Below, piece after piece: positions 8,146-22,239 of a stretch of 23,040 nt of DNA. The notes beneath the pieces were generated by a model, which had not been told where the DNA came from, ran no database searches, and was given only the letters and a program-made list of their open reading frames with translations. This stretch comes from an uncultured Erysipelotrichaceae bacterium. Its GTDB lineage: Bacteria > Bacillota_I > Bacilli_A > Erysipelotrichales > Erysipelotrichaceae. The position numbers and the translations under genes were made by a program. The stretch covers positions 1 to 23,040 of the forward strand of contig CAYWGS010000016.1 in NCBI GenBank assembly GCA_964457525.1, given 5' to 3'. Position 1 is the first letter of the stretch, and each line of letters begins with the position of its first letter.

Positions 8146-8369
8146 ATGACAATAACTTCTGTTACACCTAATACTTCTTCGATGAGTAATGTTTCTACTC
8201 CCATCTTTATGGTAACATCGATCGCACTACATCCTACACATGCACCGAAGACTCGCACATAAACACGACCTTCATCATCGATACTAACAAACTCAACATC
8301 TCCTCCATCTCTTTGAAGGTATGGGCGAATTTTATCTAATACATCTTTTACTTCTTTTTCTATATTCAT
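8139..8369 (-). CDS. NifU C-terminal-domain (Nfu-type) Fe-S cluster carrier
   Basis: 76 aa with the LQRDGGDVEF and GACVGC (CxxC) motifs typical of Nfu/NifU-C domains. Confidence 0.8.
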   Translation of the reverse strand: MNIEKEVKDVLDKIRPYLQRDGGDVEFVSIDDEGRVYVRVFGACVGCSAIDVTIKMGVETLLIEEVLGVTEVIVID

Positions 8370-8376
8370 GGCCTTA

Positions 8377-8832
8377 TCATCTCATAAAGAATAGGATAGA
8401 CGCAACCAATAAGCCCAATACGACGCCGCCGAAGACTTCGAACCATTGGTGTCCTAACACTTCTTTAACTTTCAATAAATAAATTGGATCATCGAGTTTG
8501 ACCGTGGTAAGTGTTTGGATATCACGGATTAATTGTTGAGTTATTTGAATGTTACGTCCAGCATAATAGCGAACATTAGCCGCATCAAACATGACAATCA
8601 AACTAAAAATTAAGACTACTGCAAATAATGTCGATGAGAATTTCTCTTGTATTCCGACCGCTAAGCAGAGTGCTGTAACCATGGAAGTATGTGAAGAGGG
8701 AAATCCACCGCTATCAATAAGAAGTCTTGTTTCCCATTTTCCTGTTCGATAATATCGAAACAGGGGTTTAATAATTTGCGCAATCAGGTTTGCGGAGATT
8801 GCGGCCCAAAATGGATAAAGATTACCTAACAT
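8377..8832 (-). CDS. Divergent PAP2 family membrane protein (YuiD-like, acid phosphatase/haloperoxidase-related)
   Basis: 151 aa membrane protein with the GGFPSSHTS and FDAANVR motifs characteristic of the YuiD/DUF212 family. Confidence 0.75.
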   Translation of the reverse strand: MLGNLYPFWAAISANLIAQIIKPLFRYYRTGKWETRLLIDSGGFPSSHTSMVTALCLAVGIQEKFSSTLFAVVLIFSLIVMFDAANVRYYAGRNIQITQQLIRDIQTLTTVKLDDPIYLLKVKEVLGHQWFEVFGGVVLGLLVASILFFMR

Positions 8833-8849
8833 ATTAACCTCGCCTCGAT

Positions 8850-8859
8850 ATTATAACAC
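8850..8859 (-). promoter_or_regulatory. Extended -10 element for the YuiD-like/Nfu operon
   Basis: The minus strand reads GTGTTATAAT (TGtTATAAT), about 18 nt upstream of the ATG at 8832, with a GAGGCGAGG RBS between. Confidence 0.45.
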
Positions 8860-8875
8860 ATTACAAAAAAGCTTG

Positions 8876-8884
8876 TGCTATAAT
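8876..8884 (+). promoter_or_regulatory. Extended -10 element for the S1-domain gene/pgi
   Basis: TGcTATAAT at 8876-8884. GGAGGA RBS at 8894-8899. Confidence 0.45.
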
Positions 8885-8906
8885 TATTTAGCCGGAGGAA
8901 TCATGA

Positions 8907-9272
8907 ATGGTGTATCACGTAGGACAAATAGTTGAAGGACAAATAACTGGTATAAAGCCTTATGGTGCATTTGTTAGCATTGATGCGAACACATCAGGAT
9001 TGATTCATATCTCAGAGTTGTCAGATGGTTTTGTGAGAGATGTAGAACTGTTTGTAAAGTTAGGAGAAAAGGTTAAGCTAAAGGTTCTTGAGATTGATCA
9101 AGAGAATCAACAGTTAAGATTATCTCTAAAGGCTTTACAATCCAATTCACGTAAAACAAGGCCTAGAATCAAACCGATTATTAAGTTAAGAGATAAGATT
9201 GGTTTTGCCTCATTGAAGGCACAACTCAATGGATGGATTAAGGAAGCACAAAAGGAGAAACACCATGATTAA
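8907..9272 (+). CDS. S1 RNA-binding domain protein (YabR/GSP13-like)
   Basis: VGQIVEGQITGIKPYGAFVSI....GLIHISELSDGFV is a canonical S1 OB-fold. The tail is basic. Confidence 0.85.
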   Translation: MVYHVGQIVEGQITGIKPYGAFVSIDANTSGLIHISELSDGFVRDVELFVKLGEKVKLKVLEIDQENQQLRLSLKALQSNSRKTRPRIKPIIKLRDKIGFASLKAQLNGWIKEAQKEKHHD

Positions 9273-13122: not shown

Positions 13123-14415
13123 ATGTCTTTATTGACGGGACCAGGTCGAGTACATCTTGATGGTCACAAAGATGAAACATTGCATAATGACATTGTGCTA
13201 GTAAAACCTAAGAAAGAAGTATTTGTTCCTTTAAACAATGGATCTTCAACAAAAGTTGATGTCTATGTTAATGAAGGGGATAAAGTCTTTGTAGGAACAC
13301 TTTTGGCGCGCCGCAATGATCATTTCAATGTGCCTATTTACTCACCAGTTTCTGGTGTAGTTGGGGCGAAGAAGAATATGATGCATTCTGTGTTAAAACC
13401 ACAGGAACATCTCATTATTGAAGACGATGGTAAATATGAAAAGGTTGAATCATTTAAACCTCTTGATTATACAACCGCTACTCATGAAGAACTAGTTAAT
13501 TTTATGATGGAAGCTGGAATTGTAGGTTGTGGAGGTGCTGGGTTCCCATCTTATCTAAAGTATAAGAATCCAGAAAATATCAACACATTGATTATCAATG
13601 CGGTTGAATGTGAACCTTACATTACTGCAGACTATCGCTTCACAAAAGAAAATTTAGCTGATATGTTGCATGGCGTTCGCGCTTTATTAAAGATGAGCAC
13701 TGCACCTAAGGCAATTATTGCGATCAAGAAATCTAAGAAAGAACTTTGTGAGCAATTAGAAGAAGCTGTTAAGAACGATTCTAGCATCTCTGTTTTCAAA
13801 ACTCCAGATGTTTACCCTATGGGTTGGGAACGTACATTAGTGTATGAATACGCTAAGAAACGTTACAATCGTTTACCTTCTGAAGTGGGTATTATCGTTA
13901 ACAACGTTACAACTGCAATTGCTTTCGCACGTGCTCTTAAGTATGGTGAAGGTATTGTTGAGAAGGTAGTTACATTCTCTGGTGATGGATTGAAGAATCC
14001 AACAAACGTTCGTGTTCCTTTTGGTACGAAAGTTTCAGAAGTTGTGGCTCAAATTGGTGGTTATTCCAGTGAAGATGTTTTAGTCATCGCTGGTGGTCCT
14101 ATGATGGGTAAAACAATTCCTACAGATGAATTCGTTATTACAAATTATACCAATGCGATTACTATTCTAAAGAATGAAAAAGTTGAAGCAATGGAATGTA
14201 TGCGTTGTGGACGTTGTAATGATGCATGTCCTGCTGGATTATTACCAGTACGTATTAACAATGCGGAAAAGATGAAAGATCTAAATTGGATGACTCAACT
14301 AAGAGCTGACCAATGTATTGAATGTGGATTATGTACCTATGTATGTCCATCAAGAATTGATGTGACTGAAGGTGTTAGAAGAGCTAAACGTGCTTTAGCG
14401 TTGAAGAAAGGTTAG
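13123..14415 (+). CDS. rnfC: Rnf complex subunit C (NADH-binding, 2x[4Fe-4S])
   Basis: GCGGAGFPS nucleotide/FMN site. Two ferredoxin motifs: CMRCGRCNDACP and CIECGLCTYVCP. Confidence 0.93.
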   Translation: MSLLTGPGRVHLDGHKDETLHNDIVLVKPKKEVFVPLNNGSSTKVDVYVNEGDKVFVGTLLARRNDHFNVPIYSPVSGVVGAKKNMMHSVLKPQEHLIIEDDGKYEKVESFKPLDYTTATHEELVNFMMEAGIVGCGGAGFPSYLKYKNPENINTLIINAVECEPYITADYRFTKENLADMLHGVRALLKMSTAPKAIIAIKKSKKELCEQLEEAVKNDSSISVFKTPDVYPMGWERTLVYEYAKKRYNRLPSEVGIIVNNVTTAIAFARALKYGEGIVEKVVTFSGDGLKNPTNVRVPFGTKVSEVVAQIGGYSSEDVLVIAGGPMMGKTIPTDEFVITNYTNAITILKNEKVEAMECMRCGRCNDACPAGLLPVRINNAEKMKDLNWMTQLRADQCIECGLCTYVCPSRIDVTEGVRRAKRALALKKG

Positions 14416-14424
14416 GACAAAACG

Positions 14425-15924
14425 ATGAAATTTAACTTTAGAGTTTCTCCAAACTATCGTGCTCCTCTAAGCACACAACGCATTATGACTGAATTAACAG
14501 TTTGTATTGCGTTAGTACTTTCTTACTCTGTTTACTTCTATTTTACTAAGATGGGAACAGATTATGGAATTCATGCTTTGTTAATGATTTTAACCGCATT
14601 AGGTACTGCGATTGTTGTGGAAGTTTTATGGGCATTATTCTATAAAAAGAATATCTGGAAACATTTAAATACTTCATTCCCATGGGTTACCGCATTGTTA
14701 TATGTTGGTATGATGGGTGTTAACAAACCACTCTATGTTATCTTTATTGGTAGTTTCATTTCTATCTTTATTGGTAAGTTAGTATTTGGTGGTTTCGGAC
14801 ATAATATTTTCAACCCTGCTGGTGTGGGTCGTGCTGTTTCTGTTTTATCATTCGGTGGATTTATTACGGATAAATTTGCGGATGTTGTGACAGGTGCTAC
14901 ACCTAACCAAGTTATGGAAACATTAGGTTGGGTTATCAAGGATCCAGCGATTGTAACTCAATATTTAGACAGATTTGGTGGTTTGTGGGGCTTAGCGACT
15001 GGCGGTTACGTTGGTGGTTTAGGTGAAACAAACACATTATTAATTTTAGCTGTTGGTATTTACCTTGCTGTTCGTAAGATTATTGACTGGAGAGTTCCTG
15101 CAGTATTCTTAGGTTCATTATTTGCCTTTGCTTCTATCCTTGCAGTTATGAAGGGTATGGGAATTTGGTATCCTTTATTCCACTTAATGACAGGTGGTGC
15201 AATGTTTGGGGCTATCTTTATGATGACTGACCCTGTTACATCTCCAACTTCTATTCCTGGACGTATCTTATTTGCGTTTGGTGTTGCATTCTTGACATTT
15301 ATCATCCGTATCAAAGGAAGTTTACCTGAAGGGGTTATTCGTTCTATCTTATTTATGAATATGATGACTCCATTAATTGATCGTTCATTTGATGGTTGGA
15401 CATTTGAAAAAGTTAAGAAGTATGCCATTTCGTTAACTGTTATTGGAGCATTAGGCTTCTTAACGGTTGGTGTATTTGCGAACCAAGTTGACTATATCGC
15501 GCCAGTTGTTGAAGAAGAACCAGTTGTTACGATTAACTTAAAGGGTGAACCTGTTGTCATTTCTCAACAAACTTCATCAACTGCTGTTATTGTTTCTGAA
15601 ACTGCAGATGGCGATGTTACAACATTTGTTGTTAATATTAATGGTTATGCATTCCAAAGTGATCATGATGATAATCCTCAACCAAATACTTTAGAAGTTA
15701 AAGTTAATACTGCGACTCAAACAATCGAAAGTGTTGCCTATGTAACATTCTCTGATTCTAAGAATATTGGGGATAAGACAAATTCTGACGTATTCTTGTC
15801 TCAATTTGTTGGGGTTTCCATTGTAGATGAAACAGCAAGTGTTGATGTTGTCTCAGGTGCTACAATAACATCTCAATCAGTTGTTAAGGCTGTAAATGCT
15901 GCTATTGCTGCAGCGTTGGACTAG
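14425..15924 (+). CDS. rnfD: Rnf complex subunit D fused to an extra C-terminal TM helix and FMN_bind (RnfG-like) domain
   Basis: The RnfD/NqrB core spans aa 1 to about 325 and carries the flavinylation motif TGAT (nt 14890-14901). It is followed by the helix AISLTVIGALGFLTVGVFA and a roughly 150-aa domain ending in DVVSGATITS (SGAT at nt 15853-15864). Total length is 499 aa. Confidence 0.9.
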   Translation: MKFNFRVSPNYRAPLSTQRIMTELTVCIALVLSYSVYFYFTKMGTDYGIHALLMILTALGTAIVVEVLWALFYKKNIWKHLNTSFPWVTALLYVGMMGVNKPLYVIFIGSFISIFIGKLVFGGFGHNIFNPAGVGRAVSVLSFGGFITDKFADVVTGATPNQVMETLGWVIKDPAIVTQYLDRFGGLWGLATGGYVGGLGETNTLLILAVGIYLAVRKIIDWRVPAVFLGSLFAFASILAVMKGMGIWYPLFHLMTGGAMFGAIFMMTDPVTSPTSIPGRILFAFGVAFLTFIIRIKGSLPEGVIRSILFMNMMTPLIDRSFDGWTFEKVKKYAISLTVIGALGFLTVGVFANQVDYIAPVVEEEPVVTINLKGEPVVISQQTSSTAVIVSETADGDVTTFVVNINGYAFQSDHDDNPQPNTLEVKVNTATQTIESVAYVTFSDSKNIGDKTNSDVFLSQFVGVSIVDETASVDVVSGATITSQSVVKAVNAAIAAALD

Positions 15925-15936
15925 GAGGATCGTAAA

Positions 15937-16437
15937 ATGAAAAAAATTATTCATTTAACATTATTCTTAGCGATTATTAGTGCATTAGCAGGTGGCGTTC
16001 TTGGCTATGTAAATCAAATTACAGCTCCAATTATTGCTGAAAAGAAAATTGCTGCAGTTAAAGCAAGTTTACAAGAAATTTTCCCAGGTGCATCTGAGTT
16101 TGCGGAAATTACAATTGAAGAAAATGATGTTGTAATTAATGCTTATGAAGCGACTGGTGCAGGTTATGCATTTAATGTTAGTGTTCAAGGATATAAAGAT
16201 GTGATTGAATTCATCGTTGGATTTGATCTAGATGGTAAAATTGCTGGTTTAAAAATGAATTATGTCAATGATACTCCAGGTTTAGGTACTAAAGTTGGTG
16301 AACCTGAGTTCATTAATAGTATTGTTAGTAAATCGGTAGATGATAAGTTGGATACTATTTCTGGTGCAACTATTTCATCATCAGCTGTAATTAAAGGGAT
16401 CGATGCGGCGATTGCTGTATTTGAATCCTTGAAGTAG
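15937..16437 (+). CDS. rnfG: Rnf complex subunit G (FMN-binding)
   Basis: N-terminal TM helix. FMN_bind domain with ...TPGLGTKV... and the flavinylation motif DTISGATISS (SGAT at nt 16360-16371). Confidence 0.9.
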   Translation: MKKIIHLTLFLAIISALAGGVLGYVNQITAPIIAEKKIAAVKASLQEIFPGASEFAEITIEENDVVINAYEATGAGYAFNVSVQGYKDVIEFIVGFDLDGKIAGLKMNYVNDTPGLGTKVGEPEFINSIVSKSVDDKLDTISGATISSSAVIKGIDAAIAVFESLK

Positions 16438-16449
16438 GAGGGATAACCA

Positions 16450-17091
16450 ATGAAATCTATTTTAAATTATGGTTTGAATCTCTTAAAAGAGAATCCAGTA
16501 TTTGGATTGTATCTTGGAATTTGTTCTACATTAGCGATTACAATTAACTTGAATAATGCATTAGGTATGGGTGTTTCTGTTATTGCGATTTTAACGGTTT
16601 CTAACGTTATCATTTCTCTCATCCGTAATATCACGCCTGATGAAATTCGTATTCCAGTTTATATTGTTGTTATTGCAACTTTAGTTAAAGCGGTTGAATT
16701 GTTGATTAGAGCTTATGCTCCTGCAATTGATGCTGCTTTAGGTGTATTTATTCCATTGATCGTTGTTAACTGCATTATCTTAGGTCGTGCTGAAGCATTC
16801 GCATCTAAGAATGGTGTTGCTGCTTCTGCTTTAGATGGTTTAAATATGGGTGTTGCTTATACATTAAGTTTAACTGCAATGTCTTTAATTAGACAAATTC
16901 TAGCGACTGGTATGGTTAACTTTACAAATCCTTTTACAAATGTTGAAGTTTTCTCTGTAACGTTAATTCCTAGTCAGTTTACAATTCCTATTTTCAGTGG
17001 TCCTATCGGTGCTTTCTTAACCTTCGCTTTATTAGCTGCAGGTGTAAGTGCAATCCGTAACCACCAACCTAAGGTAAAGGAGGCAAAATAA
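16450..17091 (+). CDS. rnfE: Rnf complex subunit E
   Basis: RnfE/NqrD-type polytopic protein with LGICSTLA and IPLIVVNCIILGRAEAFA motifs. Confidence 0.92.
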   Translation: MKSILNYGLNLLKENPVFGLYLGICSTLAITINLNNALGMGVSVIAILTVSNVIISLIRNITPDEIRIPVYIVVIATLVKAVELLIRAYAPAIDAALGVFIPLIVVNCIILGRAEAFASKNGVAASALDGLNMGVAYTLSLTAMSLIRQILATGMVNFTNPFTNVEVFSVTLIPSQFTIPIFSGPIGAFLTFALLAAGVSAIRNHQPKVKEAK

Positions 17092-17092
17092 G

Positions 17093-17665
17093 ATGGAACT
17101 ATTTTCTTTATTCTTTTCTGCCGTAGTTATTAATAACGTCGTCTTAACAAAGTTCTTAGGTATGTGTCCTTTATTGGGTGTATCTCGTAAAACGAGTTCT
17201 GCACTTGGTATGGGTGCTGCTGTTGTGTTTGTTATCTTTGGATCTTCTGTATTTACGTATGTCTTGTATTACAATGTTCTTGTTCCACTTTCACTTGAAT
17301 ACATGGATTTAATTACCTTTATTCTAGTTATTGCGGCGTTTGTACAATTTGTTGAATTAATTCTTAAGAAATATTCTTCTGTATTGTATAAGGCACTTGG
17401 TATTTATCTACCTTTAATCACAACAAACTGTGTAGTGTTATATGTTACTTTAATTAACATTACTGAAGGATTTACATTTGTTGAAATGGTTGTTTATTCC
17501 TTAGCGACTCCAATTGGATTCATGATGGTTCTTTATATCTTCTCAACAATCCGTGAAAGATTGGATTATGCTGATGTACCAAATGCATTCAAGGGAAATC
17601 CAATTGCGTTAATTGTTGCTGCTATTATGGCAGGTATATTTACAAGTTTCGTAGGTCTAATCTAG
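17093..17665 (+). CDS. rnfA: Rnf complex subunit A
   Basis: RnfA/NqrE-type protein with NNVVLTKFLGMCP and LPLITTNCVVL motifs. Confidence 0.92.
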   Translation: MELFSLFFSAVVINNVVLTKFLGMCPLLGVSRKTSSALGMGAAVVFVIFGSSVFTYVLYYNVLVPLSLEYMDLITFILVIAAFVQFVELILKKYSSVLYKALGIYLPLITTNCVVLYVTLINITEGFTFVEMVVYSLATPIGFMMVLYIFSTIRERLDYADVPNAFKGNPIALIVAAIMAGIFTSFVGLI

Positions 17666-17666
17666 T

Positions 17667-17846
17667 ATGGAAGCAGTTCTTTACTTAGCGGCTTTAGGTG
17701 GTTTCTATGGTTTGGTTTATTTCTTAAATCATAAGACTCCTCGTCCTGAAGGGTGTGAAGATATTGAAGCAACTTGTAGTTCATGCTCATTAGGTCATTG
17801 TGGAAATCATCCTTCCCAACAAATTAAGGAGATAAAAAATGCTTAG
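17667..17846 (+). CDS. Unlisted 59-aa single-pass membrane protein with a C-x6-C-x2-C-x4-C cluster
   Basis: MEAVLYLAALGGFYGLVYFLNHKTPRPEGCEDIEATCSSCSLGHCGNHPSQQIKEIKNA. The ATG is 1 nt after the rnfA stop, and the TAG overlaps the rnfB start by 8 nt. It fills an otherwise unexplained 173-nt gap and is below the ORF-track size cutoff. The RBS is weak. Confidence 0.5.
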   Translation: MEAVLYLAALGGFYGLVYFLNHKTPRPEGCEDIEATCSSCSLGHCGNHPSQQIKEIKNA

Positions 17847-18144
17847 TGCAAGTTTAATGATGTTAGTTCTCGGCGCTGCTTTAGGACTATTATTAGCGAT
17901 TGCTGGTAAATTCCTTTATGTAGAAGTGGATACTCGTGTAGAACAAATTACTGGTATGTTACCTGGTTATAACTGTGGTGCTTGTGGTTACCCTGGATGT
18001 GCAGGTTTAGCTGAAGCATTAGTTAATGGTGAAGCTAAGAGTCCTACTCAATGTAAGCCATCTACAGAAGCTCATCGTACACGTATTACGACATTCATGG
18101 AAACAGGTGTCGATCCTCAAGCTGAAACAGCACATGCTCATTAA
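17839..18144 (+). CDS. rnfB: Rnf complex subunit B, minimal form (TM helix plus N-terminal Fe-S domain only)
   Basis: TM helix, then LPGYNCGACGYPGCAGLAEAL...C, the C-x2-C-x4-C-x16-C RnfB N-terminal Fe-S domain. No CxxCxxCxxxCP ferredoxin motifs follow. AAGGAG RBS, and a strong terminator sits immediately after. Confidence 0.8.
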   Translation: MLSASLMMLVLGAALGLLLAIAGKFLYVEVDTRVEQITGMLPGYNCGACGYPGCAGLAEALVNGEAKSPTQCKPSTEAHRTRITTFMETGVDPQAETAHAH

Positions 18145-18146
18145 TT

Positions 18147-18178
18147 AGACAAACTTTAAAAAGTTTGTCTTTTTTTTT
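18147..18178 (+). terminator. Strong rho-independent terminator ending the rnf operon
   Basis: AGACAAACTT-TAAA-AAGTTTGTCT perfect 10-bp stem followed by T8. Confidence 0.85.
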
Positions 18179-18229
18179 ATTTCTTTCAGGTTATTCTATT
18201 TTTTACTCATATATATGAATGAGGTTGAT

Positions 18230-18583
18230 ATGAAAGGGATAATTCAAGCGTATGCATTGTTTGTGTTGTTGATGGGAATTGCTTTAGGATACATGCTTTA
18301 TATTCGAATTGATGAGATGCAATACATGGCACGAATGATTCTTAATCAATCAGTACATGATTCGATGGTAATGCTGGATAAAATGAGTATTGCTGAAAGA
18401 GAAGATCGATTAATTGAAGTTGTTAATGAGAATATCCAACTTAGAGATGAATATGGATTAATCAAACAGGTACAAGTATTGGGGTATCATTTAGAACCAC
18501 TTGCTTTACGTGTAAAGTTGACAGTTAAGTTATCAGATTATGAATGGAATTTTGATGAAACAATGATTGAGGTGGGTTCATGA
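18230..18583 (+). CDS. Membrane-anchored minor-pilin/TadE-like protein (first gene of the Tad-like operon)
   Basis: Start taken at the second ATG (18230), which has GAGGT 4 nt upstream. The product begins MKGIIQAYALFVLLMGIALGYMLYI, then a helix, then beta-rich sequence. It shares architecture and local similarity with the 21878-22216 product. Confidence 0.45.
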   Translation: MKGIIQAYALFVLLMGIALGYMLYIRIDEMQYMARMILNQSVHDSMVMLDKMSIAEREDRLIEVVNENIQLRDEYGLIKQVQVLGYHLEPLALRVKLTVKLSDYEWNFDETMIEVGS

Positions 18584-19284
18584 TAAAGAAGGATAAATTA
18601 TTATTTCTTGGTTTATTTGTTTGTATTATTTTTATTTCATTTGGTATAAGCACACTTTATATCAATCGTGAGCTAGAACTTGTAGAAGTCTATGTAGCGA
18701 AAGATACTCTTGTGGCTCGTACTTTAATTGATCATGACTCAATTACACTTATTAAGGTACCAAAAGCATATTTAAGTGAGAATGTTGTGATGGATAAAGA
18801 AGAAATGTTAGGGAAATATGTAAAGTTGAACACATCCATTCCTAAAGGGAGTCTCATGTATCAATCAAGCTTAGAATGGTTGGATGATGCGATTGATGAA
18901 CCAGCATTACTTCTTAACGCAAATCAAGCTGTATTTGCATTAGATGTGAATATGAGTAGTACTGCAGGTAATTCAATCCAAAAGGGTTCAAAGATTGATT
19001 TGTATGGAACCCTAAAAGTTAATCGAGAAACACTCGTTGATTTATTGTTTAAACAAGTAAGAGTTTTGAGTATTAAGGATAAGAATGGAAATGAAGTTAA
19101 TCAAGAAACCAATCAAGTTCCTAAAATTATGTTAATTGCAGTTGATCAGTATGAAATACCTATACTCACTAAGTTGATTGCGATAGGGGACTTAACCATT
19201 ACTCCAACATCAGAGTTCTTTAGTGATGAAGAATGTATTCTATATGAAGGATCAAGTTTATTAGGATATTTATATGCTCAATGA
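18580..19284 (+). CDS. CpaB/RcpC-like Flp pilus assembly protein (TM anchor plus SAF domain)
   Basis: N-terminal TM helix, then VYVAKDTLVARTLIDHDSITLIKVP (SAF-like). It also has GKYVKLNTSIPKGSLMYQSSL and AVFALDVN...IQKGSKIDLYGTL...VRVLSI, the CpaB block order. ATGA start/stop overlap with the previous gene. Confidence 0.68.
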   Translation: MIKKDKLLFLGLFVCIIFISFGISTLYINRELELVEVYVAKDTLVARTLIDHDSITLIKVPKAYLSENVVMDKEEMLGKYVKLNTSIPKGSLMYQSSLEWLDDAIDEPALLLNANQAVFALDVNMSSTAGNSIQKGSKIDLYGTLKVNRETLVDLLFKQVRVLSIKDKNGNEVNQETNQVPKIMLIAVDQYEIPILTKLIAIGDLTITPTSEFFSDEECILYEGSSLLGYLYAQ

Positions 19285-20278
19285 ATTTGATTTTGGTGTA
19301 ATTCAGAGATTAATTGATGATAATCAAATAACGGATATTAACTACAATGGCAAACAAATATGGGTGGATCATCTTCAAAAAGGAAGATATCCTGTAGAAC
19401 CCTTTATTGCACATGATGCGATTCAAGCACTCGTTTATAAGATTGCGAATTATGTAAATCTTCCATTTAATGCGACCAGTCCTGTATTGGAAGCTGAAAC
19501 AAGTGAACTCAGAATTAGTATCCTACATCCTAGTGTTTCTCGAGGTGGTTTAAGTTTATCCATACGGAAAACACCTTCTGTTTGTCGCTTGCATGATGAA
19601 ATAACGGGGATTAAACATTATGCACCAATTTGGGTTATTGAGTTCTTACAAGAAGCAATTCAAAACAGAAAAAATATTATGATAAGTGGTTTGCCAGGTT
19701 CTGGTAAGACAGAATTTGTTAAATACTTGATGGAGAGTATACCGGCCTTTCAACGAGTTATAACAATCGAAGATAGTTTAGAGTTGCGTTATGGAGATAT
19801 TCATCCAAAAAAAGATCATGTTATGTTAAAGGTTCATGAACACTTTAGTTACGAGAAAGCAATTAAAACGAGTCTTAGACAAAGACCAGATTGGATATGT
19901 GTCTCAGAGATAAGAGGAATAGAAATCATTTATCTCTTGCAAAGTATCTCGACTGGTACAAGTTTAATCAGTACCGTACATGCGGAAAGTGCATATGCAA
20001 TCCCGCATCGAATGATGGTTATGATGCCTGGAACAGACTTAAGTAATCAAAGCATTCATACCATGATACATGATAGTTTGGATTTTGGTGTTCATCTTGA
20101 AGTGGTGACAAGTTCTAGAGGGGTTCAGAGAAGGATTCGTGAAGTTGTTTATTATGATGTGAATGAAGCGTATGAAGGGAAGAAACTTACGATCTATCAA
20201 AAAAATGAGAAAAATAAAAGTATTAAATTTAAACAGTTTATGGAAGATAACCCATTTAATCGAGAATATAACACTTAA
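19274..20278 (+). CDS. TadA/CpaF-family type IV filament secretion ATPase (T2SSE/VirB11 superfamily)
   Basis: Walker A GLPGSGKTE (nt 19688-19714), ITIEDSLEL, Walker B-like DWICVSEIRG, His box STVHA. The N-terminus ITDINYNGKQIWVD is typical of CpaF/VirB11 N-domains. At 334 aa it is short for CpaF. Confidence 0.88.
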   Translation: MLNEFDFGVIQRLIDDNQITDINYNGKQIWVDHLQKGRYPVEPFIAHDAIQALVYKIANYVNLPFNATSPVLEAETSELRISILHPSVSRGGLSLSIRKTPSVCRLHDEITGIKHYAPIWVIEFLQEAIQNRKNIMISGLPGSGKTEFVKYLMESIPAFQRVITIEDSLELRYGDIHPKKDHVMLKVHEHFSYEKAIKTSLRQRPDWICVSEIRGIEIIYLLQSISTGTSLISTVHAESAYAIPHRMMVMMPGTDLSNQSIHTMIHDSLDFGVHLEVVTSSRGVQRRIREVVYYDVNEAYEGKKLTIYQKNEKNKSIKFKQFMEDNPFNREYNT

Positions 20279-20282
20279 AGAT

Positions 20283-20990
20283 TTGACTGTAATTATTTCT
20301 GAGATACTTGTCATTATGCTATTTGGTACTGTGTTTAAATTACCCAATACTTATCAACTAATTCTATTAGGACTATCTTTTATACTTACTCCATTCTTTA
20401 TGCATTATCAGATGCGATGGAAAGAGGAGGAACAAGCCTTCTATGAATTGACGGACTTCCTTCAACAATTCTTAGTTAGTTTTAAACAACATCCTAAGAT
20501 TTATGCATCGCTTCTTGAATCAAGACCGAATACAACAGGAGTTCTAAGAGAACAAGTTGATTGCTGGATAAATCAGCTTGAAATGGGTGTTTACCCTAAA
20601 GAGAGTGCACAAAATTTTGTTAATAAGCAATCTCACTTTATTGTTTCAAACCTCATTCATTTAATGTTAGCGGTAGAGAACTATGGAACATTCAACTACA
20701 TCGAGGGATTAGAAATCATACAGAATGATATCGAAGACTGGATAGAAGATACGACAATCTTCAAGAACGAACAAAAGAGCACAAAGAATCGAATACAGAT
20801 ACTAGCATTATTAGCGTGTGGTATCGCTTGGATTTCACACAATATGTTATTTAAAACAGGATTAATTGAGACCATGAATTTCTATTACTTTAGTTTGTTT
20901 GTGTTCTTGGTCTTGGTACTATTAACACTATTCTTCTCATATAAACTAATCTCAGTCCCATGGATTGATGCGAGTGAGAATCTATGTTGA
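20283..20990 (+). CDS. TadB-like platform protein (single T2SSF-type domain); start uncertain
   Basis: N-terminal TM helices, then a roughly 130-aa helical cytoplasmic block (FYELTDFLQQFLVSFKQ...LESRP...), then C-terminal TM helices. The position is right for TadB. The track start (20163) would overlap tadA by 116 nt. TTG at 20283 and ATG at 20316 are the non-overlapping options, and neither has a good RBS. Confidence 0.55.
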   Translation: MTVIISEILVIMLFGTVFKLPNTYQLILLGLSFILTPFFMHYQMRWKEEEQAFYELTDFLQQFLVSFKQHPKIYASLLESRPNTTGVLREQVDCWINQLEMGVYPKESAQNFVNKQSHFIVSNLIHLMLAVENYGTFNYIEGLEIIQNDIEDWIEDTTIFKNEQKSTKNRIQILALLACGIAWISHNMLFKTGLIETMNFYYFSLFVFLVLVLLTLFFSYKLISVPWIDASENLC

Positions 20991-21730
20991 AGTATCTAGC
21001 CATTCTATGCTTAATGATTTGGGTATTCTTTGACGATAAGGTGTTTGAATTAACACACTACAAGTCCACAAAGTTTATTCAAATCGAAAAGATATTAGGT
21101 TATGAGTGTAATGAAAAATGGTATAAAGATCGATATTTCAAAATAAAGATAATTCGCTATTTAATTTTGTTAGTACTTGTATACGACCCTAAGATTGTTT
21201 TAATTACAGTATTTATTCTATGTTTATTGATTTATTTCTATCCTGTATTAAAACTTAACCAATTCGCTAAATTAAAAATAAGAAGTATTCAATATCACTT
21301 TCCAATTTACTTAAGACAGATTCAAGTATTACTTCAAAATAATACAGTTGTTCGATCAATTGAATTATCCCTAGAATATGTACCTAAAGTATTAAAACCT
21401 GATATTGAACGATTAAATGAGTTAATCAAAGAAGATCCAATGAATAGTCACCATTACATTAATTGCATGAAAGACTACGATTTGATTGAAATACAACGAT
21501 CGATGAAATGGCTTTACCGATACCAGAACTTTGGCTATAAAGATGCGTATTCGCAATTTAATCGTATGTTAATGTCTACATCTAAATGGCTTAGACAATC
21601 ACGAATTGAACAGAAACAGAGTTCAATTCAAGTGTATCAGTGGATGGGAATGTTACCACTTCTTGGTGTAACATTCGTATTTATATCTGCGATGATGAGT
21701 GTTGTAATCTCATTATTTGAAAGGGGGTGA
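20984..21730 (+). CDS. TadC-like platform protein (single T2SSF-type domain)
   Basis: Same architecture as the previous gene. HFPIYLRQIQVLLQNNTVVRSIELSLEYVP resembles the T2SSF helical core. The final TM helix is MGMLPLLGVTFVFISAMMSVVISL. It overlaps the upstream stop by 7 nt. Confidence 0.55.
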   Translation: MLKYLAILCLMIWVFFDDKVFELTHYKSTKFIQIEKILGYECNEKWYKDRYFKIKIIRYLILLVLVYDPKIVLITVFILCLLIYFYPVLKLNQFAKLKIRSIQYHFPIYLRQIQVLLQNNTVVRSIELSLEYVPKVLKPDIERLNELIKEDPMNSHHYINCMKDYDLIEIQRSMKWLYRYQNFGYKDAYSQFNRMLMSTSKWLRQSRIEQKQSSIQVYQWMGMLPLLGVTFVFISAMMSVVISLFERG

Positions 21731-21731
21731 A

Positions 21732-21878
21732 ATGATGAAAGCATTTTTTGAAGAATATGGTTTAGTGTTAGTTGTGACAGTTATTGCGACAGGAATGATT
21801 CTTTTCTCTGAAGGGTTTAAAGAAACGATGCAAGATACGCTTGAGACACAATGGACACAAATGACAGAGATTAACTAA
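21732..21878 (+). CDS. Unlisted 48-aa Flp-like pilin
   Basis: MMKAFFEEYGLVLVVTVIATGMILFSEGFKETMQDTLETQWTQMTEIN. It has an EYGL-plus-hydrophobic core like the Flp motif. AAAGGGGG RBS lies just upstream. TAATG overlap with the next gene. It is below the ORF-track cutoff. Confidence 0.55.
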   Translation: MMKAFFEEYGLVLVVTVIATGMILFSEGFKETMQDTLETQWTQMTEIN

Positions 21879-22216
21879 TGAAGGGGGCATTTGAAACCGT
21901 TATCGTTATGATCTTTGGGATGATGTTTATGGTGATGGGTATTGATTACATGAGAGTAATTCTTCTTAACAACAAGGCTCGTTTATATGCTGAAAACATT
22001 CTAGCGATCGTTGAGAATCAGAATCGTTATGATGCGGATGTAGATGAATTGATTCGTTTAAGTGAGATTCAATGTTCCGTATGTACGTATCAAGTAGAAG
22101 AACATATTGAAGTTGAAAAGCGTTTATGGATTACTGTCACTTATCCAATTGAAATGAATCATTTGAATTACTTTACTTTATCCAAGATAAGATTATTAAC
22201 TAGACCAATCGCTTAG
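21878..22216 (+). CDS. TadE-like minor pilin/pseudopilin
   Basis: The product begins MKGAFETVIVMIFGMMFMVMGI, a short polar start followed by a hydrophobic helix with an early Glu. It lies directly after the pilin gene, as tadE does in Tad loci. Confidence 0.5.
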   Translation: MKGAFETVIVMIFGMMFMVMGIDYMRVILLNNKARLYAENILAIVENQNRYDADVDELIRLSEIQCSVCTYQVEEHIEVEKRLWITVTYPIEMNHLNYFTLSKIRLLTRPIA

Positions 22217-22239
22217 TGCAGGAAACTGCACTTCTTTAT
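22215..22239 (+). terminator. Terminator-like hairpin ending the Tad-like operon
   Basis: AGTGCAG-GAAA-CTGCACT at 22215-22232, followed by TCTTTAT. The U-tract is imperfect. Confidence 0.5.

Follow-up and report, generated by a model that had tools for sequence, protein, structure and literature searches.

The 23,040-nt window analyzed here (positions 1 to 23,040 of contig CAYWGS010000016.1, GenBank assembly GCA_964457525.1, from an uncultured Erysipelotrichaceae bacterium) is chromosomal, with a GC content of 35%, and contains rpmB, ftsA, ftsZ, nadE, glnA-III, and an rnfCDGEAB cluster, followed by an operon of seven overlapping or abutting genes (18230–22216) and then by coaX. The operon lies between two terminator-like hairpins, one after rnfB (18147–18170; a 10-bp stem followed by a T-run) and one before coaX (22215–22232); these hairpins and the genes of the operon are on the plus strand. 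The subject of this study is a small gene of this operon (21732–21878), which encodes a candidate Flp-like pilin of 48 amino acids (aa), or 47 aa if translation starts at 21735 (product M(M)KAFFEEYGLVLVVTVIATGMILFSEGFKETMQDTLETQWTQMTEIN). An initial annotation, made by a model from the letters of the stretch alone, had reported an open reading frame (ORF) at this position that was absent from its list of ORFs; this ORF exists and translates as quoted, and it was missing only from that list, as public annotations already contain it (e.g., H9L01_01390, “hypothetical protein”, in Erysipelothrix inopinata). Some members of the family carry the IMG label “Flp pilus assembly pilin Flp”.

The first gene of the operon (18230–18583) encodes a small protein, p117 (MKGIIQAYALFVLLMG...), which has a start codon kept in relatives and is predicted by AlphaFold2 to be pilin-shaped. 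The second gene (18580–19284) encodes a CpaB/RcpC-like protein that is membrane-anchored at its N-terminus and contains SAF and RcpC domains (PF16976, 31.7 bits against a cut-off of 28.8, also marked in relatives; TIGR03177 pilus_cpaB, E = 4.7e-12, under the model cut-off), and the third (19274–20278) a 334-aa secretion ATPase of the TadA/CpaF/VirB11 type without a long N-terminal domain (PF00437 T2SSE, 90 bits, E = 1.6e-25), for which the best NCBIfam models were VirB11, TadA-family, and TrbB, all under their cut-offs. Two genes encoding polytopic membrane proteins come next, one TadB-like (20163–20990, with the start at 20163, 20172, or 20205), with sub-threshold similarity to T2SSF and a match to a protein of a distantly related locus (L021, described below), and one TadC-like (20984–21730), with a match to the same L021 protein. 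The size, position, and membrane layout of both fit a platform protein, with traces of T2SSF similarity (E = 0.02–0.06); up to 116 nt of the TadB-like ORF lie within the 3′ end of the ATPase gene, and this ORF encodes a basic N-terminal tail that is kept in relatives. The small gene is followed by p112 (21878–22216; MKGAFETVIVMIFG...), which encodes a divergent DUF4320 protein (sub-threshold similarity) with a predicted pilin-like architecture (AlphaFold2). The flanking genes had initially been described as TadC-like and TadE-like; the downstream gene proved to be this divergent DUF4320 gene rather than tadE, and the upstream one presents only trace similarity to T2SSF. Neither TadZ, TadE/F (PF07811), nor TadG was detected in the operon. 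While coaX is always found directly downstream of the operon, the upstream neighbor varies, being the rnf cluster in the window’s clade (13123–18144 in the window) and apbE or menaquinone genes in E. inopinata-like genomes (L017 and L029).

The small gene is preceded by a strong Shine-Dalgarno sequence (AGGGGGTG, 21722–21729), which lies across the final codons of the TadC-like gene and its TGA stop (21728–21730); at the other end of the gene, the TAA stop shares bases with the ATG of p112 (TAATG at 21878). The Shine-Dalgarno sequence is kept as GGGGGTGA or GGAGG in all loci, with 7–8 nt from the G-run to the start codon. In the window, the family-homologous start is the second ATG (21735), 7 nt past the G-run as in the relatives, and the product is therefore probably a 47-aa protein (MKAFF...) rather than a 48-aa one. 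A start codon directly precedes an invariant Lys in all 15 loci read (ATG in 14 and GTG in one; product (M)KAFFEEYGLVLVVT), giving an N-terminus that reads (f)M-K-A-F-F-E-E-Y-G-L-V-L-V-V-T from this fixed start. The same N-terminus is found in 183 protein clusters at 90% identity; Lys occupies the Flp −1 position, which is a Gly in Flp pilins, in 183/183 of these clusters with only Met ahead of it, and the residue after Lys is Ala in 177 of them and T, M, S, I, or E in the others. The residue called ahead of the invariant Lys was M, L, V, or I in every cluster; the non-ATG codons present there, where DNA was readable, were TTG (three cases), GTG (one), and ATA (three). The window ORF has no Gly between its start and EY, and a longer leader ending in Gly was found in none of the relatives, as judged from the DNA of the loci and from matches to the family profile; two loci (L015 and L016) present an in-frame stop 11 codons upstream with no start-capable codon between this stop and the start. 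A HMMER scan of 1.84 billion representative proteins returned 18 matches in all, the small proteins among which align from profile position 1, corresponding to residue 1 of the protein in all except four calls with an artefactual upstream extension; no relative with a real leader was found among these 18 matches. The initial annotation had described a core preceded only by MMK(A), and had named a longer start with a Gly-ending leader, conserved in relatives, as a result that would count against it; with the start fixed in 15 loci, no such longer start exists among them, and the description holds as to the missing Gly and the missing Gly-ending leader, with the correction that the family start leaves MKA rather than MMKA.

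Two types of apparent N-terminal extension were rejected. A longer leader initiated at an upstream TTG (MKGGEM-) would require translation of “KGGE”, which is the ribosome-binding site read in frame, and L011, L015, and L016 contain no start-capable codon at this position; the longer database entries (59–80 aa, “...LKGGE-”) are therefore artefacts in which an upstream codon was called and the ribosome-binding site translated. Extensions by four residues (MDAI-, MGFL-, MVEI-, and MSCI-) start at a called GTG that abuts the G-run without spacing, with a TTG or ATA codon placed before Lys at a normal 8–9-nt spacing; these were treated, on the basis of this spacing, as gene-calling artefacts, the ATA cases being uncertain. 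Three independent relatives (L029, L030, and L034) have ATA ahead of the invariant Lys, where the others have ATG, GTG, or TTG; either ATA initiates in these three relatives or their start has moved to the GTG abutting the Shine-Dalgarno sequence.

A search of 5.8 billion proteins yielded 110 clusters related to the small protein and a profile search yielded 359; in these protein searches, named sources were all Erysipelotrichaceae or Erysipelothrix and nearly all members were 47–51 aa long, and a scan of viral contigs returned no relative. A genome scan identified 16 related loci, 14 of which extend to the small gene, and all 14 presented the same gene order (i.e., p117, CpaB, ATPase, TadB-like, TadC-like, small ORF, p112, and coaX), as did E. 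inopinata, which likewise includes the small gene; the conservation in homologous loci on which the initial annotation had made its proposal depend is thus present in 14/14 loci and in E. inopinata. Identity across loci was 64–91% for the small ORF, 33–67% for the TadC-like gene, and 29–72% for p112, and by this measure the small gene is the best conserved gene of the seven-gene operon. Nei-Gojobori counts gave proportions of synonymous differences (pS) of 0.56–0.9, which are near saturation, and of non-synonymous differences (pN) of 0.04–0.3; the ratio of non-synonymous to synonymous rates (dN/dS), where computable, was 0.04–0.1 for most pairs and 0.2–0.35 against the two most distant loci. 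Over the first 24 codons, most pairs presented 9–15 synonymous and 0–2 non-synonymous differences, with up to approximately seven non-synonymous differences in pairs involving the two most distant loci. Despite saturated synonymous sites, residues 1–23 are nearly invariant, and the C-terminus is the variable part. This substitution pattern indicates that the small gene is real, translated, and under strong purifying selection.

The 47-aa product has no globular domain and consists largely of EYGL followed by approximately 15–17 mainly hydrophobic residues. The family profile places EYGL onto E5-Y6-G7-L8 of mature Caulobacter PilA (8u1k, E = 0.13), and its EY also aligns to E5-Y6 of the Flp pilin 8u2b; alignment of the family with PilA by hhalign gave the same register (E = 7.9e-5, probability 61%). 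A tblastn search of plasmids with mature Caulobacter PilA, meant to gather canonical Flp sequences, gave no match. Because EY of the small protein is in register with E5-Y6 of mature PilA, Met-Lys alone stands where canonical prepilins carry a leader ending in Gly. Compared with the Flp/PilA subunits of Tad (type IVc) pili (i.e., Caulobacter PilA, processed by CpaA, and Aggregatibacter Flp1, processed by TadV), the window protein is likewise a headless helical subunit of approximately 45–50 residues with an EYGL core in register, encoded in an operon with a TadA/CpaF-type ATPase and CpaB/RcpC. It differs in lacking both a hydrophilic leader and a Gly at −1, with only Met-Lys ahead of the XXXXEY core, and the operon differs from Tad loci in having no TadV/CpaA gene and platform proteins that are barely recognizable as T2SSF. 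The resemblance to Flp is weak by sequence, being below Pfam thresholds, but exact in register, and is supported by register and context; of the Flp-like core proposed initially, the register with mature PilA found support, from both the profile and hhalign, and membership of the Flp family was not established.

The small protein, p117, and p112 share an N-terminal template (MK-x-h-h-E/Q-x-Y). p117 starts with MK[G/S]-h-h-x-x-Y and p112 with MK[G/A/M/Q]-[A/G/S]-[F/I]-E, and Gly3 is present in 12/13 p117 and 11/15 p112 sequences. A mechanical ORF for p117 starts at 18215 (MNEVDMKG...), with a GAGGT Shine-Dalgarno sequence inside these apparent first codons; the MKG codon (18230 in the window) is the start in 12 of the 13 relatives read. 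AlphaFold2, run on the single sequence, predicted for p117 a helix at residues 2–49, a second helix at 54–72, and then four strands (predicted local distance difference test score, pLDDT, 75.5), and for p112 a helix at 2–48, a second helix at 53–61, and then three strands (pLDDT 92.8). p117 presented no Pfam match. The p112 family matched DUF4320 below threshold in 14/16 members (best E = 9.5e-5), did not match the TadE model PF07811, and matched PF13400 in one member at E = 0.21; a profile search of the PDB with this family returned nothing relevant. With the pilin-like layout that the models predict for both proteins, p112 is a candidate minor subunit.

Distant members of the small-protein family (P0123 and P0126) are encoded in four loci of another, low-GC lineage (L020–L023), which contain a sister system. 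The L021 ATPase is 39.5% identical to the window ATPase, and a fused 502-aa L021 protein matches the TadB-like protein over residues 45–219 (E = 4.5e-8) and the TadC-like protein over residues 294–487 (E = 3.7e-19). These loci contain six to seven pilin-like genes, two of which encode proteins of 390 and 418 aa, and all of which open with M-x-x-h-h-x-x-Y at residue 1; the starts include MKAFLEEYGL, MYLFLEEYGM, MNTFFGEYGL, MKTFVNQYGL (390 aa), MRQVVESY, MKHLIEEFGF, MDAFFHEYGF, and MTSIFKEYSF (418 aa). Residue 2 of these paralogues is K, Y, N, R, D, or T and residue 3 is A, L, T, Q, S, H, or I, and because these positions are so variable they do not form a site for a peptidase of the A24 family.

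The interpretation given in the initial annotation is partly supported. From the sequence evidence above, we consider it about an even bet (a probability of roughly 0.5) that the 47/48-aa product is an Flp-type major subunit that is made in near-mature form and assembled by a Tad-like (type IVc-like) machine without cleavage by a prepilin peptidase. Under such a mechanism, Lys2 would hold the N-terminus in the cytoplasm, following the positive-inside rule, residues 9–25 would cross the membrane, and the C-terminal approximately 20 residues would lie outside. Methionine aminopeptidase is not expected to remove Met1 when residue 2 is Lys, and Met1 would therefore be retained. The ATPase and the two polytopic membrane proteins would draw subunits out of the membrane and pack them together by way of the subunits’ N-terminal helices. 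Within the filament core, Glu6 and Glu7 would neutralize both Lys2 and the N-terminal amine, and the CpaB-like protein would cross the cell wall. p117 and p112 may serve as minor or priming subunits, as suggested by the shared template and by the predicted combination of a long helix with a small β-sheet.

The results that weigh against a subunit assembled without cleavage concern, in part, the recognition of the system as a pilus. The match to Flp_Fap (PF04964) by which the initial annotation had proposed to judge the peptide did not appear, the window protein being unmatched by this model and by Flp1_like (PF16982) even at E ≤ 10; each model was matched by only 4/14 relatives, all below threshold, with scores reaching 18.6 bits against Flp1_like, where the cut-off is 33.5, and 15.6 bits against Flp_Fap, where it is 32.2, and with best E-values of 1.3e-3 and 9e-3. 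The TadB-like protein is sub-threshold against T2SSF (E = 0.04–0.06), and the TadC-like protein presented no Pfam match, with T2SSF similarity (E = 0.024) in one of seven family members; hhalign detected no paralogy between the TadB-like and TadC-like families, profile searches of the PDB with these two families returned nothing relevant, and neither the p112 nor the p117 model had a significant Foldseek match in the PDB. The filament, its surface exposure, and the chemistry of its N-terminus are, moreover, predictions from these genes.

The similarity to Flp and T2SSF, below threshold throughout, also speaks for a reading in which the small protein would not be a filament subunit but a small bitopic membrane component (e.g., a stator, a chaperone, or a channel lining) of a VirB11-type module for export or DNA transfer, domesticated on the chromosome, with EYGL convergent or a relic. 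Such a module would be akin to genes 36–41 of pLS20, which are listed as “Unknown” (PMC8557374). The best models for the ATPase are the conjugal VirB11, TrbB, and TadA ones, and the ATPase is 32–34% identical to the “putative VirB11” of pLS20-family and Virgibacillus plasmids. Genes 36–41 of the pLS20 family (5383–9441 of L028, from B. subtilis) and a Virgibacillus plasmid module (6388–10056 of L026) have the gene order and gene sizes of the window operon but lack CpaB; they encode an N-terminally anchored protein of approximately 120–126 aa, an ATPase, two membrane proteins of approximately 250 aa, a DUF4320 protein, and a membrane protein of 47–58 aa. The modules are embedded in type IV secretion (conjugation) operons, beside VirD4, and support a role outside filaments. 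The window operon does not have this setting, as VirB4, VirD4, a relaxase, and VirB6/8 are absent from the window and from the related loci, and it is inherited vertically at a fixed chromosomal site beside coaX. It also encodes CpaB/RcpC, which is specific to Tad systems and scores above the Pfam threshold. The plasmid small protein (MLDQNADRMYWVIG...) is unrelated in sequence to the 47-mer and has no EYGL, and hhalign found no signal between p112 and pLS20 gene 40. Further arguments for a pilin are that constraint on the protein is strongest over its N-terminal 23 residues, as in the α1-N helix of pilins, and that one N-terminal template recurs in three proteins of the operon and six to seven of the sister system, as is typical of sets of major and minor pilins. 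We therefore regard a non-filament component as unlikely, while noting that the plasmid modules may themselves represent a cryptic pilus-like apparatus.

The other results that weigh against assembly without cleavage concern the cleavage site and the peptidase. The claim that the locus has no peptidase gene was borne out, with no A24 peptidase gene in the window or the 16 related genome loci, no Peptidase_A24 Pfam mark in the loci with Pfam marks or in the 10 kb flanking them on each side, and no G[GAS]GD motif in any ORF of at least 100 aa in 378 kb of loci; these negatives cover the loci and about 10 kb on each side, not whole genomes. Several systems often share a peptidase whose gene lies outside the pilus locus, comG loci reportedly occur widely among Erysipelotrichales, and in the same family E. 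rhusiopathiae has a canonical Tad locus, separate from the operon type studied here, with an A24A peptidase (ERH_0823; PMC4968806 and its supplement). Like the window operon with its candidate Flp-like pilin, the E. rhusiopathiae locus encodes Flp-type pilins (ERH_0824 and ERH_0825, 174-nt genes for 57-aa Flp/Fap prepilins, beside ERH_0823) and CpaB, together with CpaE; the window system differs in its 47-aa protein and in having no peptidase and no CpaE/TadZ. The E. rhusiopathiae Tad locus (ERH_0823–0825) was found to be down-regulated in an avirulent derivative (PMC4968806). Prepilin processing is required before assembly, according to reviews (PMC10191384), which also state that prepilin leaders end in Gly or Ala. 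The K-A and K-G of the Erysipelotrichaceae proteins (MKA|FF in the pilin, MKG|AF in p112, and MKG|II in p117) fit a three-residue leader of the form [KR][GA]|, as in archaeal class III sites (KA|IS in UpsA, KG|IS in UpsB, and RA|LS in AapA), and PibD of Sulfolobus cuts three-residue leaders, with natural substrates predicted (Ng et al. 2009, reviewed in PMC10117864 and PMC4371748).

The protein could accordingly be a true prepilin with a three-residue class III leader (M-K-A|FFEEYGL) cut by an A24 peptidase encoded elsewhere (e.g., TadV or ComC), with p112 (MKG|AFE) and p117 (MKG|IIQ) cut likewise; these would be the shortest leaders known in bacteria, and we know of no bacterial three-residue class III leader. 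The resemblance to PibD substrates lies in M-[K/R]-[G/A] running straight into a hydrophobic helix, and these substrates are a precedent for a “leader” cut down to three residues; Tad systems are considered descendants of archaeal Epd-type pili (PMC6668835). The near-constancy of position 3 (Ala in 177/183 clusters of the small protein, Gly in most p117 and p112 sequences) is also as expected of a leader end, and cleavage there would make Phe the +1 residue, which it also is in classical type IV pilins. PibD substrates, however, are cleaved by a known peptidase, whereas here none is linked to the locus, and the small residue 3 is lost in divergent members of the family and in the sister system. 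Position 3 is T, M, S, I, E, or Q in divergent members (M or Q in some p112) and L, T, Q, H, or I in sister paralogues, and we know of no A24 enzyme that accepts these residues. Cleavage at this site would also put Glu at +3/+4 rather than +5, and Ala3 is explained equally well, given the PilA register obtained with the profile and hhalign, by homology with the Ala found at +1 in mature PilA (ATAIEYGL). A three-residue leader thus seems improbable, and it is what tempers the initial claim that a cleavable leader is lacking: no Gly is present at −1, as claimed, but the claim was too strong, since K-A|F fits an archaeal-type class III site. That the ORF arose by chance in an intergenic gap, or encodes a Sec-type signal peptide with a short secreted peptide, could be entertained from its small size, from the lack of a curated family match, and from how common an N-terminal hydrophobic stretch is in random AT-rich ORFs, but this is refuted to near certainty by conservation, i.e., by 183 clusters, a fixed start with a Shine-Dalgarno sequence, dN/dS mostly of 0.04–0.1 with saturated synonymous sites, an invariant N-terminus and variable C-terminus, which is the reverse of a signal peptide with an active peptide, and the absence of an Rfam RNA at the small gene.

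Two linked features define type IV filaments, namely a class III signal peptide on the pilins and a dedicated aspartic prepilin peptidase. No description of leaderless type IV pilins was found in the searchable literature. Extending assembly without cleavage from the window protein to its relatives, we tentatively suggest, at somewhat less than even odds, a class of Firmicutes Tad-like machines in which major and minor subunits are made mature (M-[K/R]-x-h-h-E-x-Y) without a prepilin peptidase, and which would be the first peptidase-independent type IV filaments; this class would be chromosomal and vertically inherited in Erysipelotrichaceae, with a multi-pilin version in a low-GC lineage, probably of the gut. 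If subunits are indeed assembled uncut, the leader-cutting step thought universal for such pili would be dispensable here, which would show what purpose the leader and its removal serve, be it membrane targeting, topology, or gating of assembly. The seven genes with their 47-aa subunit would then form a minimal set for reconstitution, the loci would have been missed by pilin finders keyed to G|XXXXE motifs, and the system may illuminate the unexplained genes 36–41 of pLS20-type conjugative plasmids.

The sister loci (502–3709 of L020 and 3791–10744 of L021–L023) have a GC content of 34–35%, with most genes lacking Pfam matches and with proteins of 1600–2100 aa encoded nearby. Their ATPase is 43–49% identical to ATPases of unverified “Bacteriophage sp.” contigs from the human gut (MT837507 and MT835474), and the sister element might therefore be mobile, or a phage-plasmid. 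An 83-kb “Bacteriophage sp.” contig (L027) also contains two tandem small genes (8335–8911) just upstream of an ATPase gene; their products, which start with MKETVAHILEIAVVVIALMAL..., have a pilin-like N-terminus with no Gly ahead of the hydrophobic helix.

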